NCBI GenBank assembly: GCA_036918135.1
Contig: JBALDB010000018.1
Span: 32,001-96,000, forward strand
Origin: Nostoc sp.
GTDB lineage: Bacteria > Cyanobacteriota > Cyanobacteriia > Cyanobacteriales > Nostocaceae
Reading direction: 5' to 3'
Length of the DNA: 64,000 nt
This document shows, one piece after another, positions 4,275 through 12,589 of the stretch; position 1 is the stretch's first letter, and each line of letters starts with the position of its first letter. Position numbers and translations under genes: made by a program. The notes under the pieces are model-generated. The model saw only the letters and a list, made by a program, of their open reading frames with translations, made no database searches and was not told where the DNA came from.

Positions 4275-4378
4275 TGTAGTATCTCCTTGACAATATGTAT
4301 TTTATATATTACAAATGTAGTATGAGAACAAAAGCTTTTCTAAAAGGCTAAGGCAAAACATCTCAGAACCTAGAAAAC
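4275..4378 (+). promoter_or_regulatory. Putative promoter/leader of the RNA array: TGTAGTAT repeats, TTGACA, boxB-like hairpin and boxA-like element
   Basis: TGTAGTAT 4275 and 4316; TTGACA 4287; hairpin AGCTTTT-CTA-AAAGGCT 4333-4349; GAACCTAGAAAAC 4366-4378. Confidence 0.5.
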
Positions 4379-4401
4379 CGAATAGCAAGTTACGACTTTT
4401 T

Positions 4402-4482
4402 GGGGTCGCGATTGGTGTTCGACTGCTCCGAAACCAACAAACGGACGGTAGCAGGATTCGGGTTCAATTCCCGACGACTCCA
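4402..4482 (+). ncRNA. Mini tmRNA-like RNA (tRNA-like domain only)
   Basis: GGGGTCG/CGACTCC-A acceptor with G3.U70; unpaired D-loop ending TTCGAC; helix CTGCT/AGCAG; T-arm TCGGG-TTCAATT-CCCGA; no tag ORF. Confidence 0.7.
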
Positions 4483-4499
4483 CTGACTTCTACTTGTTT

Positions 4500-4706
4500 G
4501 GGTCTGTAACTCTAATGGTAGAGCGCCCAGATTCACTTGTGCTCTGACAGAAAAAGCTTACATACTTGCTCAAAGGTAGAGCGATCGTCTCTAAAACGAT
4601 AAGTGCAGGTTCAATTCCTGCGGTGTAACCACAGCTTTTTCAACTCGCACGAAGTGTGAGTGCAACTCTCACAGGGAAGGTATCGGTTCAATTCCGATCA
4701 GATCCA
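4500..4706 (+). ncRNA. tRNA-like RNA whose anticodon arm is replaced by scaffold cassette 1
   Basis: Acceptor GGGTCTG/CAGATCC-A; D-arm ACTC-TAATGGTA-GAGC; T-arm ATCGG-TTCAATT-CCGAT. Confidence 0.7.
4534..4656 (+). ncRNA. Scaffold cassette 1 carrying a tRNA body with CUA anticodon
   Basis: GTGC..GAAAAAGC-TTACATA..GCTTTTTC-AACTC-GCAC; D-arm GCTC/GAGC; ATCGT-CTCTAAA-ACGAT; GCAGG-TTCAATT-CCTGC. Confidence 0.75.
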
Positions 4707-4747
4707 CTAAATAATTTGTAATTCGTAATTAAAAACAGGTGATTGTG

Positions 4748-4948
4748 ATGGTTCATATTCGATTTGAAGGACGTTCTGTTGATGTTGTAGAAACACAACT
4801 GGGAATTACAGCAAGTATGAATGATGTGGCGGTGAAGCAACAGGTTGCACAGCACTTAGATATAAATAACGATCGCCTTTCTGCTTACATAGTAGATCGG
4901 CGTCCCAGTGGGGATTTGATTGTCCGTCCGGAAGCTGTCTATGGTTAA
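4748..4948 (+). CDS. Small putative ubiquitin-like/beta-grasp protein ending in Gly
   Basis: 66 aa, AGGTGA RBS, ends ...[10 protein letters not shown]; ThiF/E1 gene in the same locus. Fold is inferred. Confidence 0.6.
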
Positions 4949-4961
4949 AATATTTAGTTAA

Positions 4962-5141
4962 CCATGCCCTAACAGAAGAAGCATACATACACATTCATAA
5001 CGATCCTAAGGTAGTAAAATTCGAGCGATCAAACTAGCGAAGTATGATTTATAAATTTTTTGCAGATTTAGCATACGTGCCCACTGCCAATAGTTGGTAA
5101 GAGCGATCGTAAGCTGTAAAAAGCTTCTTAAACTTGTACGG
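4962..5141 (+). ncRNA. Scaffold cassette 2 carrying a permuted 23S rRNA domain IV (H67-H71) mimic
   Basis: AAGAAGC/GCTTCTT stem; ATAACGATCCTAAGGTAGTAAAATTC vs 23S ATAACGGTCCTAAGGTAGCGAAATTC. Confidence 0.7.
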
Positions 5142-5156
5142 ATTAATTGAAGAATT

Positions 5157-9735: not shown

Positions 9736-9938
9736 TGCGTGCCCCAACTCGTGGAGCCTACATATTAGTACGAGAGGAAGGTAACACTGCCGAATGCAGT
9801 GGGCGTTAGTGAACGGGGAGTGCGAAGAACCTGGAAAGTGGGCTTAGAAGTAGCCATCTTTGAAAGAGTGTGTAACAACTCACCAGCGGAGTCCCTCTAG
9901 TAACTGAGAAAACGCAATGCTCCACCAACTTGCACGCA
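9736..9938 (+). ncRNA. Scaffold cassette 6 carrying 23S sarcin-ricin loop and H42-H44 GTPase-centre mimics
   Basis: TGCGTGC/GCACGCA; GTGGAGC/GCTCCAC; AGTACGAGAGGA 9767-9778; GGCTTAGAAGTAGCCATCTTTGAAAGAGTGTGTAACAACTCAC. Confidence 0.8.
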
Positions 9939-10030
9939 GAATTATACAGTAATCTTAAATTATTCGTTAGAACCAAGATACCCGACTTCTTTTGAAAAGT
10001 TGGGTATCTAAACCCTACTGAGCGATAAAA

Positions 10031-10423
10031 TTAAAGTTTACTTTCAGTCTTTGACTTTAATACCTGTATCGCTTTGAATCCTTCTATAGTCTGACCTAAA
10101 AATATCATGGGAATAATCAAGCCAAACGGTTTACCTGTTTGAATCGTATTGTAAATGCCAGTTAACGCATTTAGCGACATCAATCCTACTGCAATACCTA
10201 GTGCAATTTTTGATTTACGTTGTACAAAAAAACCTAGAACTAGATAGAGTAAACCAAAACCTAAAAACCCAATTCCTAATATTAGATAATCAGGCAATCG
10301 ATTACCAACGATAAAGAATATTATGCTTAGGAAAATACTCAAAATTCCAATTGCGTAAACTGCACGATAAGCAGATGCTAACTTTTTTCTGGACTCTGAC
10401 ATCTGTTGTATTTCGGTAGTCAT
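10031..10423 (-). CDS. Small membrane protein (about 4 TM), unknown function
   Basis: 130 aa hydrophobic ORF. Confidence 0.65.
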   Translation of the reverse strand: MTTEIQQMSESRKKLASAYRAVYAIGILSIFLSIIFFIVGNRLPDYLILGIGFLGFGLLYLVLGFFVQRKSKIALGIAVGLMSLNALTGIYNTIQTGKPFGLIIPMIFLGQTIEGFKAIQVLKSKTESKL

Positions 10424-10551
10424 GCTTTTTCTATTTTTTGGGTTTATTGAGAGTAAATAATGTAGAAGCTATAGAACTTAAAAGATATATTTTTTATATA
10501 CTTAAATTTATAAATTTGCTTATGTAATTTTGCTTAAAAAAACGATAATTT

Positions 10552-11382
10552 ATGACTGACATCCGTAAGCTAATCAACCAAATTGCTAGCGCAGAAGCAC
10601 AGTTGTGTAATACTCAATTTCTTGCGCCTTGTGTAAAAGGTGGACGAGTTCGCACACGAGTAGTAGGGATGGTCTATACCTTCACACCAAAGCCGAATAA
10701 ATTTGAAGGTTGGGGTATTTTTCAGCCGGTGGATGAGAAGATAGCAATGGTTGTGGAAGAGGCAGATTTACCTCAAATTGCCGAATACCTGCAACACTTT
10801 CCCCAAATACGGCTGCGGCTAGCATACCAACTGCGGGGACAAAGTTGGTTAGCATACCCCGTGAATGAAGCAGATATACGTCAACGGTTGCAGGTGGTTA
10901 AACCGATCGCCATTCATCTAGTAACTGAAAGTATTATTTTTGACCAAATCATCGCCCGTTGGAATGGACAGTCCTGCTGGTTTGAGGAAATCGATCATCG
11001 TACCGATCCGGCTATTGTTGAAACTCTGCAATCAGCTGTTAAGCAACTGATTCCCGTTGAAGAATTGCAATTTAAAGGCATAACGCCAGAAATTCGCACA
11101 GTCTATGAATTAGCAACACGGCAAATTGAAGGCTTTGGGCAACCCCAACAGGATGAAAAGCGATTGAGAAAGGCATTGCAGATGGGTGGCGGTGAATTAA
11201 AGCAGTTTCACGATCGCGGTGATTACTGGACAGTGGACTGGACAACTGCTGATGGTGTTCGCCACAGTAGTGCGATCGCCAAAACTGACTTGACTGTAAT
11301 CAGTTCTGGTATTTGCCTAAGTGGATACGATCGCAACTTTGACTTGCAATCGTTAGTTGGTGTAATGGAACAACAAGAGTAG
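10552..11382 (+). CDS. Hypothetical protein with possible E2-like C-terminal Cys motif
   Basis: 276 aa ORF 24 bp upstream of ThiF; SSGICLSG near C-terminus. Confidence 0.7.
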   Translation: MTDIRKLINQIASAEAQLCNTQFLAPCVKGGRVRTRVVGMVYTFTPKPNKFEGWGIFQPVDEKIAMVVEEADLPQIAEYLQHFPQIRLRLAYQLRGQSWLAYPVNEADIRQRLQVVKPIAIHLVTESIIFDQIIARWNGQSCWFEEIDHRTDPAIVETLQSAVKQLIPVEELQFKGITPEIRTVYELATRQIEGFGQPQQDEKRLRKALQMGGGELKQFHDRGDYWTVDWTTADGVRHSSAIAKTDLTVISSGICLSGYDRNFDLQSLVGVMEQQE

Positions 11383-11406
11383 TAAGTGTATTAATTACGA
11401 ATTATT

Positions 11407-12045
11407 ATGAGTATCTTTTTTCACGAACAGCTTTACCGCAGCAATGCTGTGATGGCAAAGTTGAAAAACTATCCTGTAACAATTTGTGGGGCGGGGGCGT
11501 TAGGGGCTAATATTGCTGAGAATATGGCTCGGTCTGGTTTTGATAAACTGACAGTAATCGATTGCGATCGCATTGAGGAGCGTAATCTTTCCACCCAGCC
11601 TTACTACCGTTCCGATGTTGGAGCATTCAAAGCAAAAATATTGGCAAACAATTTATACCGAGCAATTGGTACTAAAGTTGATGCTAAAACCAAAGAATTG
11701 ACATCAGCAAATGTCAATCAACTACTCCAAGATAGTCAATTAATTATTGATGCTTTTGACAATAGCGTAGCACGTCAATTAGTAAAAGATTATGCCACTC
11801 AATTTAGCATTCCTTGTCTTCATGCTGGGCTAGCAGTTGATTATGCAGAGGTAATTTGGAATGATGTTTATCGCGTTCCTTCTGAGGTTAATGATGATGT
11901 TTGTGATTATCCTTTGGCACGAAACTTAGTAATATTAACCGTTGCTGTAGTATCGGAAGCGATTGTTTCATTTATTGCCACAACAGAACGGCGTAACTTC
12001 ACCATCACTTTGAAGGATTTGACTGTTCAACCTTTGTTTTTGTAG
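11407..12045 (+). CDS. ThiF/MoeB/E1-family adenylyltransferase
   Basis: ICGAGALG, DCDRIEERNLSTQ, KAK, IIDAFDN; candidate catalytic Cys in VCDY. Confidence 0.9.
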   Translation: MSIFFHEQLYRSNAVMAKLKNYPVTICGAGALGANIAENMARSGFDKLTVIDCDRIEERNLSTQPYYRSDVGAFKAKILANNLYRAIGTKVDAKTKELTSANVNQLLQDSQLIIDAFDNSVARQLVKDYATQFSIPCLHAGLAVDYAEVIWNDVYRVPSEVNDDVCDYPLARNLVILTVAVVSEAIVSFIATTERRNFTITLKDLTVQPLFL

Positions 12046-12127
12046 ATGGCGATCGCAGAATTTGTAATAAGCTGGAAAAGCTAAACCATTAACAGCGAAA
12101 ATGAGCAAATTATGAGCCTTAAAACCA

Positions 12128-12358
12128 GTGCCTAAGAAAATTAGAGAACTGAAGGCAATGGTAGCAAAAGTTGGATATATTCTTCAGCCAGGTCGAGGAA
12201 AAGGAAGTCATACGTATTGGAAACATCCGTTATTACCTGAAGAACCTCTGACTATTCCAGGTAAGGAGGGAGATGATGCTCCGCTATATTTGGAGAAGAA
12301 CATTCAACGGGTTCTCAAAAGGTTGGAAGAGTTTGAAAGCGATGAAGGTGAATCATAA
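12128..12358 (+). CDS. hicA: HicA-family toxin
   Basis: GKGSH motif, 76 aa. Confidence 0.85.
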   Translation: MPKKIRELKAMVAKVGYILQPGRGKGSHTYWKHPLLPEEPLTIPGKEGDDAPLYLEKNIQRVLKRLEEFESDEGES

Positions 12359-12589
12359 ATGAGTTATTACTACAGCATGGTGATTCAGTGGTCAGAGGAC
12401 GATCGACTATTCTTAGTGCATTTGCCAGAGTTCCCCTGGCAGGAGTTTCATACGCATGGCAAAACTTACGAAGAAGCTGCCAAAAATGGGCAGGAAGTAA
12501 TTGAGGCGTTTGTTGAGATGCTGCAAGAAGAGGGAAAACCACTACCAGAACCCAGAATGCTTCCTAGACGACCATTACAGGTTGCTTAG
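12359..12589 (+). CDS. hicB: HicB-family antitoxin
   Basis: IQWSEDD..LPEF..THGKTYEEAAKNGQEVIE..PLPEP; abuts hicA. Confidence 0.85.
   Translation: MSYYYSMVIQWSEDDRLFLVHLPEFPWQEFHTHGKTYEEAAKNGQEVIEAFVEMLQEEGKPLPEPRMLPRRPLQVA

Follow-up and report, generated by a model that had tools for sequence, protein, structure and literature searches.

A Ro60/Y RNA locus of Nostoc with tRNA- and rRNA-like Y RNA modules and a candidate ubiquitin-like partner module

Ro60 and Y RNAs are conserved from bacteria to humans, and to our knowledge only PNPase tethering and tRNA mimicry have been described for bacterial Y RNA modules. What kind of system, then, is a cyanobacterial locus in which six small non-coding cassettes, alike in scaffold and different in cargo, are interleaved with genes for a helical protein with a vWA domain, a small glycine-ending protein and a ThiF-family enzyme? 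This locus lies in a 64,000-nucleotide (nt) stretch of DNA from Nostoc sp. (assembly GCA_036918135.1, contig JBALDB010000018.1, positions 32,001 to 96,000 of the forward strand), here called the window. We identify it with high confidence as a Ro60/Y RNA locus whose Y RNA set includes rRNA mimics and which is joined to a module of a ubiquitin-like candidate (Ubl), a ThiF-family E1-like enzyme (ThiF) and a conserved protein of 276 amino acids (aa), p276. As to what it does, we lean towards a stress-inducible Ro60/Y RNA ribonucleoprotein system with an enlarged Y RNA set and translation-mimicking modules. The window is chromosomal DNA of a Nostoc-like cyanobacterium with ordinary housekeeping genes outside the system locus, and between 4275 and 12045 every relevant feature is on the plus strand. 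The features of the system, in window positions, are the following.

4275 to 4323, plus strand: promoter P1 region, with two exact TGTAGTAT boxes (4275-4282 and 4316-4323), the second containing a TAGTAT -10-like hexamer.
4402 to 4485, plus strand: mini-tmRNA, the tRNA-like domain of transfer-messenger RNA (tmRNA), with an Rfam tmRNA match.
4500 to 4706, plus strand: putative outer split tRNA-like frame enclosing cassette 1, from fold and flank conservation.
4538 to 4651, plus strand: cassette 1, scaffold with a cloverleaf tRNA look-alike; its anticodon is CUA here and variable elsewhere.
4748 to 4948, plus strand: Ubl, a ubiquitin-like candidate of 66 aa with the C terminus RPEAVYG.
4963 to 5140, plus strand: cassette 2, scaffold with a 26-nt copy of the helix 69 (H69) 3' strand and helix 70 (H70) of 23S rRNA.
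5162 to 5295, plus strand: cassette 3, a YrlA-type Y RNA with a permuted tRNA module (T arm, closed acceptor hairpin, D arm).
5368 to 5485, plus strand: cassette 4, scaffold with a cloverleaf tRNA look-alike; its anticodon is GCG here and hypervariable elsewhere.
5650 to 6030, plus strand: L7/L12 paralog (TIGR00855), an optional component.
6108 to 6175, plus strand: cassette 5, scaffold with a stem of 5 base pairs (bp) and a 7-nt loop, an anticodon-arm look-alike.
6239 to 7672, plus strand: Ro60-like protein of 477 aa, a helical TROVE-type ring with a vWA domain.
9708 to 9725, plus strand: promoter P2, an exact tandem TGTAGTAT-AA-TGTAGTAT.
9738 to 9936, plus strand: cassette 6, scaffold with a sarcin-ricin loop (SRL) motif (9767-9778) and the H42-H44 GTPase-associated centre (GAC) of 23S rRNA (~9818-9900).
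10552 to 11382, plus strand: p276, a conserved 276-aa protein without known family, from homolog and co-occurrence searches.
11407 to 12045, plus strand: ThiF-family E1-like adenylyltransferase of 212 aa (PF00899).

The first-pass annotation of this DNA had described six co-oriented non-coding cassettes on one scaffold, and the description holds. A regular expression for the shared 5' and 3' halves found exactly six cassettes on the plus strand of the window and none on its minus strand, and the whole genome (7,657,212 bases) contains the same six only, all at the system locus. The 3' motif AACTYGYRYG occurs nine times in the window versus 2.04 expected, a count reached by none of 100 shuffles, and six of the nine matches are cassette ends. 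The 5' motif alone is weaker and not clearly over-represented, with seven matches versus 3.6 expected and 5 of 100 shuffles reaching seven. The scaffold has four elements: a terminal stem of 5-6 bp (GUGCC.../...GCAC); an asymmetric internal loop, CCYRAC on the 5' side and AACUU on the 3' side; a second helix whose sequence varies by cassette while complementarity is kept (GAAAAAGC/GCUUUUUC, GAAGAAGC/GCUUCUU, GUAAAGC/GCUUUGC, GAAGC/GCUUC and GGAGC/GCUCC); and the word (U/A/C)UACAUA.

To assess conservation, we used 80 related genome loci from Nostocales with 88-97% protein identity, where many gene misses fall at contig ends; the loci closest to the window come from Nostoc, Calothrix, Tolypothrix and Scytonema. 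Conservation of the cassettes beside homologous genes had been set beforehand as a condition of the Y RNA-like reading, and the strict cassette pattern was present on the gene's strand in 79 of the 80 loci (L035 being the exception) and on the other strand in none. Homologs of cassettes 1 to 6 were found by blastn in 75, 44, 71, 76, 77 and 65 loci, respectively. Matches of less than 90% coverage were excluded from the alignments, as were, for cassettes 1 and 4, cross-matches of less than 80% identity, leaving 61, 45, 65, 66, 72 and 58 instances. Cells that do not pair numbered 6 of 1,539, 34 of 1,452, 5 of 1,984, 15 of 1,860, 13 of 848 and 29 of 2,900 in cassettes 1 to 6, and compensatory change was seen in 3, 8, 6, 4, 2 and 5 pairs. 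A wider cassette 6 alignment of 15 sequences, four of them from other cyanobacterial families, had compensatory change in 15 of 50 pairs. The mean pairwise difference was 0.06-0.10 for the cassettes versus 0.289 at 63 fourfold sites of the Ro60-like gene, meaning that the cassettes evolve 3-5 times slower than these sites; within cassette 6 it was 0.003 for the SRL and 0.073 for the GTPase centre. These data indicate that the cassette RNAs are under purifying selection with pairing retained.

Selection of this kind bears on the simplest account of such an array, namely that the cassettes are decaying, functionless remnants, pseudo-tRNAs and rRNA fragments from a mobile long tRNA array. Complete SRL/GAC cassettes do lie inside long tRNA arrays in two genomes (G096 and G084, loci L116 and L117, with 18 and 10 tRNA-model matches in ~3 kb), and such arrays spread horizontally and carry insertions and deletions, according to PMC8421152. 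However, the purifying selection, the compensatory changes, the invariant SRL and the common scaffold largely refute this account, as does the distribution of the RNAs. In a sample of 401 cyanobacterial genomes, a scaffold-plus-SRL word was found in 38 genomes of at least eight families, 37 of which also have a Ro60-like gene (the exception is G084), while the reversed control word was found in none. We therefore regard the remnant account as highly improbable. In other cyanobacteria and on one metagenome contig (loci L105, L116, L117 and L135), rows of 8 to 32 tRNA or tRNA-like genes immediately precede or surround the Ro60-like locus or the SRL cassette, which suggests that the Y RNA array and the long tRNA arrays form a single unit. 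At one metagenome locus, 32 tRNAs called by ARAGORN directly precede the Ubl, L12 and Ro60-like genes, and each of the six distant metagenome loci scanned has YrlA-like or tRNA-like RNAs between its Ubl and Ro60-like genes.

On profile and structural-model evidence, the 477-aa protein is a divergent Ro60, as the annotation of a helical-plus-vWA protein of TROVE type had proposed. A profile of 38 family members retrieved human Ro60 (E = 4.5e-16), Xenopus Ro60 (6.2e-13), a Thermus phage TROVE protein (2.8e-12) and Deinococcus Rsr (7.9e-7); a single-sequence search retrieved only the Thermus phage protein (E = 4e-4). The predicted structure, with a predicted local distance difference test (pLDDT) value of 88.6, had only Ro60/TROVE proteins as its 12 best Foldseek matches, all of them full length with template modelling (TM) scores of 0.63-0.70. 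Residues D300, S302, S304, T362 and D386 of the metal ion-dependent adhesion site (MIDAS) are invariant; among vWA models, VWA_CoxE and VWA_2 hit the window protein and vWA_Ro60 hits 7 of the 38 family members. The family comprises 1,011 cluster representatives at E of at most 0.001. No viral relatives were found by a single-protein search with close patterns, which does not by itself show absence from phages.

Among the RNAs, cassette 3 ties the set to known Y RNAs. By fold and by alignment to the Rfam model (RF02553), it has the YrlA layout of an end stem, a T arm, a closed acceptor-like hairpin and a D arm, and it lies on the same strand as the Ro60-like gene, ~950 nt before it and inside the 4 kb by which YrlA is recognized. 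Its match to the model is 24.1 bits (5208-5264, model positions 30-81; E = 0.14; gathering score, 69), and RNAs at the same place in other cyanobacteria score 44.2, 38.5 and 37.8 bits over model positions 1-114. With a YrlA-type member and a terminal stem common to the other five cassettes, the proposal of a Y RNA-like repertoire is supported.

The cargoes of the other cassettes copy several parts of the translation apparatus. Cassettes 1 and 4 match the Rfam tRNA model at 49.8 bits (4559-4628) and 51.1 bits (5389-5462), respectively (gathering score, 29). The predicted folds have the acceptor stem of both running into the scaffold helix, so that free acceptor ends would be absent, and the anticodon of both differs among close relatives. 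Around cassette 1, the minimum free energy (MFE) fold pairs 4500-4507 with 4699-4706 (z = -2.65); an acceptor 5' strand and a D arm come before the cassette, and a hairpin, a T arm and an acceptor 3' strand after it. These flanks, kept in 66 and 73 of the 80 loci, we read as the split halves of a further tRNA-like frame. The mini-tmRNA scores 43.2 bits against Rfam tmRNA (E = 1e-14), below the gathering score of 47, with 22 nt replacing 314 nt; the mRNA-like and pseudoknot part is missing, and with it the reading frame and pseudoknots that define a full tmRNA. It has blastn homologs in 55 of the 80 loci, 25 of these at a coverage of at least 90%, and a genuine tmRNA with a tag peptide is found elsewhere in the genome (contig C56, 134802-135189).

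The assembly contains no rRNA operon, with no SRL or 16S landmark found outside cassette 6, and Nostoc linckia 23S rRNA was therefore taken as the reference for the remaining cargoes. Cassette 2 contains 26 nt that match the H69 3' strand and H70 with three mismatches, and none of 200 shuffles scored equally. It had been annotated as a copy of H67-H71, of which this one stretch stands; the remainder is not significant. The best match of its 3' part is the adjoining upstream 23S segment, which would imply a permuted order, and 67 of 200 shuffles scored as well. In a circularly permuted H67-H71 reading of the whole cassette, only the 26-nt segment is significant. Cassette 6 matches positions 1093-1148 of the bacterial large-subunit rRNA model at 51.0 bits (9831-9886; gathering score, 50; E = 4e-13). 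Against the N. linckia GAC it scores 53 versus a shuffle maximum of 30, the match reaching into H42, and 14 nt are identical to the SRL of the same rRNA. The Rfam and 23S matches thus sustain the earlier list of mimicked parts: tRNA, anticodon arm, SRL, GTPase centre and tmRNA domain.

Copies of rRNA sites have precedents. The L10 leader mimics the rRNA L10/L11 site, and isolated SRL and thiostrepton-domain oligonucleotides bind EF-G in vitro. Like these, cassette 6 copies H42-44 and the SRL, the L10/L11- and GTPase-binding elements; unlike them, it joins both elements in one trans-type RNA with a Ro60-type stem, its own gene and its own promoter. This likeness raises the alternative that the cassettes are cis-acting leaders that bind free ribosomal proteins or factors and autoregulate the genes downstream, cassette 6 for p276 and ThiF and cassette 5 for the Ro60-like gene. 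Mimicry of the L10/L11 site is the very principle of the L10 leader, and the positions fit: ~60 nt lie between cassette 5 and the start codon of the Ro60-like gene, cassette 6 begins where transcription is predicted to start, and where the insertion described below is lacking, cassette 6 stands just before p276 (in L077, for example, the cassette is at 1936-2136 and p276 begins at 2149). Yet one scaffold surrounds all six cargoes, even in cassettes that precede another cassette; cassette 3 belongs to the trans-acting YrlA class; and the SRL/GAC cassette also occurs unlinked to p276 and within tRNA arrays. A cis-leader function leaves the shared scaffold and the unlinked copies unexplained and seems to us improbable.

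How the RNAs might be switched on is suggested by the promoter boxes. The sequence TGTAGTAT is the footprinted site of the TrcR repressor at the Anabaena trn promoter (Wang et al. 2023, PMC10272220), where two direct repeats, 2-3 nt apart, lie over the -10 box and the start site (Santamaria-Gomez et al. 2021, PMC8421152). The latter paper reports that these repeats render the trn operon, rtcB, dpsA and an HNH gene of Anabaena inducible by translation inhibitors, and the box arrangement of P2 has the operator layout published for TrcR (PMC8421152, PMC10272220). The P2 tandem ends 12 nt before cassette 6 and is the only exact tandem in the genome. Of 57 loci, 49 have a tandem box in the 80 nt preceding cassette 6, usually 8-12 nt from where the cassette begins, and of 53 related loci, 47 have an exact box in the 160 nt preceding the mini-tmRNA; the control for box conservation was 35 of 1,600 random windows. 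The words TROVE, Ro60, Y RNA, YrlA and ThiF do not occur in the main texts of PMC8421152 and PMC10272220, and membership of the cassettes in the TrcR regulon is therefore our prediction from sequence.

The locus also resembles the Anabaena trn operon and TrcR regulon beyond the tandem TGTAGTAT-type repeats at the -10 box and start, in having arrays of tRNA-shaped genes and an HNH endonuclease gene nearby (15016-15573); unlike the trn operon, it has its tRNA shapes locked, by their predicted folds, in a Y RNA stem that leaves no free acceptor ends, and it carries rRNA mimics and a protein module besides. Between that HNH gene, which is on the minus strand, and ligA there is a near-tandem box, TGTAGTAT-T-TGTAGTTT, at 15844-15860; HNH endonuclease genes are among the TrcR-repressed genes of Anabaena in Table 1 of PMC10272220. 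Elsewhere in the genome, an orphan unit on the minus strand of contig C56 (~190480-190740, locus L115) has a TGTATTAT-T-TGTAGTAT box, a leader similar to the beginning of the first transcript in the window, and a degenerate segment resembling H43/44. It is without the Y RNA scaffold, and the system proteins were not found on contig C56.

Expression was assessed from contigs of RNA libraries of a ~90% identical relative, all from one study. Contigs span 4739-5492 (the Ubl gene and cassettes 2-4) at a depth of 270-790; depth is 72-104 over the L12 region and 28-48 over p276 and ThiF, and one contig (depth, 111) links the end of the Ro60-like gene to cassette 6. The contigs thus weakly favour co-transcription and higher RNA levels for the cassettes. 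Contig cover is zero over 4291-4581 (the mini-tmRNA and the start of cassette 1) and over most of the Ro60-like gene, from which we draw no inference. A contig joint from 4732 to 10550 was set aside, one of its sides being only 21 letters long. Just upstream of P1, after a phosphodiesterase gene, very short contigs (46-60 nt) at 4173-4232 reach a depth of 13,406 in library X1; this signal could be an abundant small RNA or a repeat.

Which proteins accompany the Ro60-like gene? Ubl was present in 75 of the 80 loci, p276 in 69, ThiF in 68 and the L12 paralog in 28, compared with 21 for a small membrane protein, 3 for HicA/HicB and 2 for an acyltransferase. In the 401-genome sample, a Ro60-like gene occurred in 46 genomes and p276 in 47, and by our comparison of the two lists 45 are shared; in several of these genomes the two genes are on different contigs or far apart. 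For more distant comparison we used 62 metagenome relatives of less than 65% identity. Of the 36 loci whose flank was long enough, 27 have Ubl upstream and on the same strand; p276 follows downstream in 33 of 37, and 18 of 23 contain ThiF. The module of Ro60-like protein, Ubl, p276 and ThiF extends from Nostocales to metagenomic relatives at 40% identity. The L7/L12 paralog was annotated correctly as a gene (TIGR00855, 101.6 bits; contig C27 has a second copy with 48% identity) and proved optional, being the component found in 28 loci.

The glycine-ending protein and ThiF had been proposed as a pair, and they are a conserved one, by the frequencies just given and by a complex model. The Ubl C terminus RPEAV[YF]G is kept throughout, distant relatives included, and its terminal Gly is invariant; ThiF matches PF00899 (E = 1.1e-28), with an invariant GAGALG at residues 28-33. 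The Ubl-ThiF complex model scored 0.81, the best control scoring 0.01; the mark applied to such scores is reached by 116 of 157 solved complexes and by 2 of 215 mismatched pairs. Model runs agreed in at least 96% of contacts, with a pLDDT of at least 92 for the partner, and Ubl residues 60-66 contact ThiF residues 28 and 30-33, which on our reading of the sequence are inside the GAGALG motif. Binding of Ubl to ThiF is supported by this model, whose pass may reflect likeness to the solved ThiS-ThiF and MoaD-MoeB complexes. Some UniRef records label the 66-aa protein "TGS domain-containing," and an Atlas look-up returned unnamed clusters only.

Ubiquitin-like proteins and E1-like enzymes are paired in sulfur-carrier and conjugation systems such as ThiS-ThiF, MoaD-MoeB, TtuB-TtuC and Urm1-Uba4, with JAB peptidases. 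The Nostoc pair resembles these in its small protein with a C-terminal Gly, in the modelled position of that tail in the nucleotide-binding site of a ThiF-family protein and in a distantly occurring JAB protein: the distant locus L164 encodes a Prok-JAB protein between p276 and ThiF, and homologs of it were found in 16 of 80 metagenome loci and in none of the 80 Nostocales loci. It differs in ending with a single terminal Gly after RPEAV[YF] rather than Gly-Gly, in having an E1 of 212 aa without a CxxC motif, and in its association with Ro60 and Y RNAs in place of cofactor synthesis. We recognized no E2, rhodanese or PP-loop partner, and PADLOC gave generic E1-E2 models for ThiF only. The third partner, p276, has 1,188 homologs and could be assigned to no family of Pfam, NCBIfam or PADLOC; relaxing the Pfam search to E of 10 brought no credible match, an Atlas look-up no usable one, and its profile only noise against solved structures (E = 0.34).

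In the stress-inducible ribonucleoprotein system towards which we lean, translational stress would lift TrcR repression and, alongside spare tRNAs and RtcB, yield two predicted transcripts: one from P1 with the mini-tmRNA, cassettes 1-5 and the Ubl, L12 and Ro60-like genes, and one from P2 with cassette 6 followed by p276 and ThiF. The tRNA-like frames may be processing signals that release the RNAs. The shared stem would dock each RNA on the Ro60-like ring, and the variable module would act as an adaptor after the model of the Deinococcus Rsr-Y RNA-PNPase complex, in which the Y RNA is a tether (Chen et al. 2014, PMC4201824). Each module could then bring the ring, with Ubl, E1 and p276, to proteins that recognize tRNA, the stalk base (L10/L11/L12), the SRL, H69/H70 or to translational GTPases. 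The ThiF-type E1 would activate the 66-aa protein at its C-terminal Gly, for subsequent conjugation or sulfur-carrier use.

Several points weigh against this reading. The docking site is assigned by analogy with YrlA, and all YrlA matches fall under the Rfam gathering score of 69, those of the cyanobacterial and metagenome counterparts at 31-44 bits. The Pfam TROVE model gives no match to the Ro60-like protein. The MFE values of cassettes 2, 5 and 6 are no better than those of shuffles (z = -0.53, -0.86 and -0.36), so that the case for these RNAs is built on conservation and covariation and not on stability. Over the whole genome, single TGTAGTAT words show no enrichment (224 observed versus 234-426 expected). 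The predicted structure of p276 has a pLDDT of 38.9 and no recognizable fold. The RNA-library contigs cannot show ends or strand, and libraries of a single study may contain DNA. Last, the anticodon loops have a diversity of 0.24-0.30, which is about neutral (0.289).

These loops are also central to the main rival reading of the whole set, as decoys or damage sensors. The modules would be baits that copy common targets of ribotoxic nucleases and ribosome-binding antibiotics (anticodon loops, SRL, H69/H70, GTPase centre and tmRNA), and cleavage, modification or occupancy of a bait on the Ro60-like ring would protect ribosomes and tRNAs or trigger an alarm through Ubl, E1 and p276. The mimicked sites are exactly the functional centres of translation; the SRL is invariant, and in cassettes that are otherwise conserved it is the anticodon loops that vary most. 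Distinct versions of the anticodon-type loops number 24 of 57, 30 of 62 and 27 of 53, with the U before the triplet and the purine-rich position after it mostly kept. The promoter boxes would moreover place the RNAs in a translation-inhibitor regulon that includes rtcB (PMC8421152, PMC10272220), and the Salmonella rsr-yrlBA-rtcBA operon is reported to respond to damaged tRNA (PMC7790460). On the other hand, variation of the loops does not exceed the neutral rate, so diversifying selection, which we had considered for them, is unsupported at a diversity equal to that of fourfold sites. No toxin gene is consistently linked (HicAB is found in 3 of 80 loci), PADLOC gives only the generic E1 match, and a decoy acting stoichiometrically would face competition from thousands of ribosomes. 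Loops changing at the neutral rate would fit an adaptor read by its shape and equally an arms-race decoy or the lack of any constraint, and the mimicked sites together with free-running anticodon loops fit decoys as well as adaptors. Taking both sides together, we consider a decoy or sensor function possible though rather unlikely.

A more far-reaching version of the bait idea makes the locus a guard system. A Ro60-like ring would carry a panel of baits (anticodon loops, tmRNA, SRL, stalk base and H69/H70) that covers all major targets of ribotoxins and of agents blocking translation, switched on through TrcR together with spare tRNAs and RtcB, and damage to a bait or its occupancy would be turned into a covalent signal through Ubl, E1 and p276. 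We hold this to be more doubtful still. If true, it would be a bacterial pathway uniting RNA mimicry, RNA surveillance and ubiquitin-like signalling, spanning cyanobacteria and other phyla, with the JAB peptidase there making the mark reversible.

Set beside known systems, the locus looks like an undescribed branch of the Ro/Y RNA quality-control system tied to translational stress. It shares with bacterial Ro60 (Rsr)/YrlA systems a ring-plus-vWA protein of Ro60 fold; same-strand small RNAs within a few kb, with ends that form a stem and a tRNA-mimicking module; several Y RNAs per locus; and a link to RNA repair and translation damage. It differs in a protein that has diverged beyond the Pfam TROVE model and in five extra RNAs on the YrlA stem, with unpermuted cloverleaves, an anticodon arm and mimics of the 23S SRL, H42-44 and H69/70. 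Unlike the Salmonella rsr-yrlBA-rtcBA operon, its partners are Ubl, a ThiF-type E1 and p276 rather than RtcB and RtcA in the same operon. A literature search covering few subscription journals found no description of Y RNAs with rRNA-like modules or of a link between Ro60 and a ThiF/Ubl pair; the available text of an Asgard virus preprint reports three ThiF genes and a Ro60 gene for a single virus and leaves them unconnected.

At this locus the YrlA stem serves again as a handle, now for modules that imitate the factor-binding centre of the ribosome and other RNAs of translation, and these modules suggest L10, L11, L12, translational GTPases and tRNA enzymes as candidate partners. Ro60 is tied to Ubl and E1 in a module conserved across distant bacteria, and the predicted regulon placement would join the set to spare tRNAs, RtcB and an HNH nuclease. 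These predictions can readily be tested in Nostoc and Anabaena strains that are amenable to genetics, and the combination of a constant handle with an exchangeable display module is of interest for RNA engineering.

Three further features interrupt or adjoin the system.

7808 to 8914, minus strand: acyltransferase_3 gene, an insertion between the Ro60-like gene and cassette 6.
9241 to 9552, plus strand: fragment copy of the Ro60-like gene (residues ~249-333) with an in-frame TGA.
12128 to 12589, plus strand: HicA/HicB pair (Pfam), outside the system.

The stretch 7808-9552 is an insertion that brought the acyltransferase gene, with the Ro60-like fragment copy as its scar; in the RNA-library contig from the relative, the Ro60-like gene ends just 68 nt before cassette 6. 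HicAB had been counted among the genes of the array: the genes are as annotated, and their presence in 3 of 80 loci marks them as incidental. The same window also contains an NFACT (RqcH-like) gene (22970-24697, minus strand) and a release factor 3 gene (31368-32996, minus strand), probably by coincidence. In locus L006, which represents relatives without the L12 paralog, a 241-aa open reading frame of no family lies between cassettes 3 and 4 (4626-5351), and after cassette 4 a small open reading frame (5518-5745) has a Cys-rich C-terminal motif that we take to be reminiscent of SEC-C. In a cyanobacterium of another family (locus L107), a long near-perfect inverted repeat at 1285-1456 stands just before the Ro60-like gene and yields spurious microRNA-model matches on both strands.

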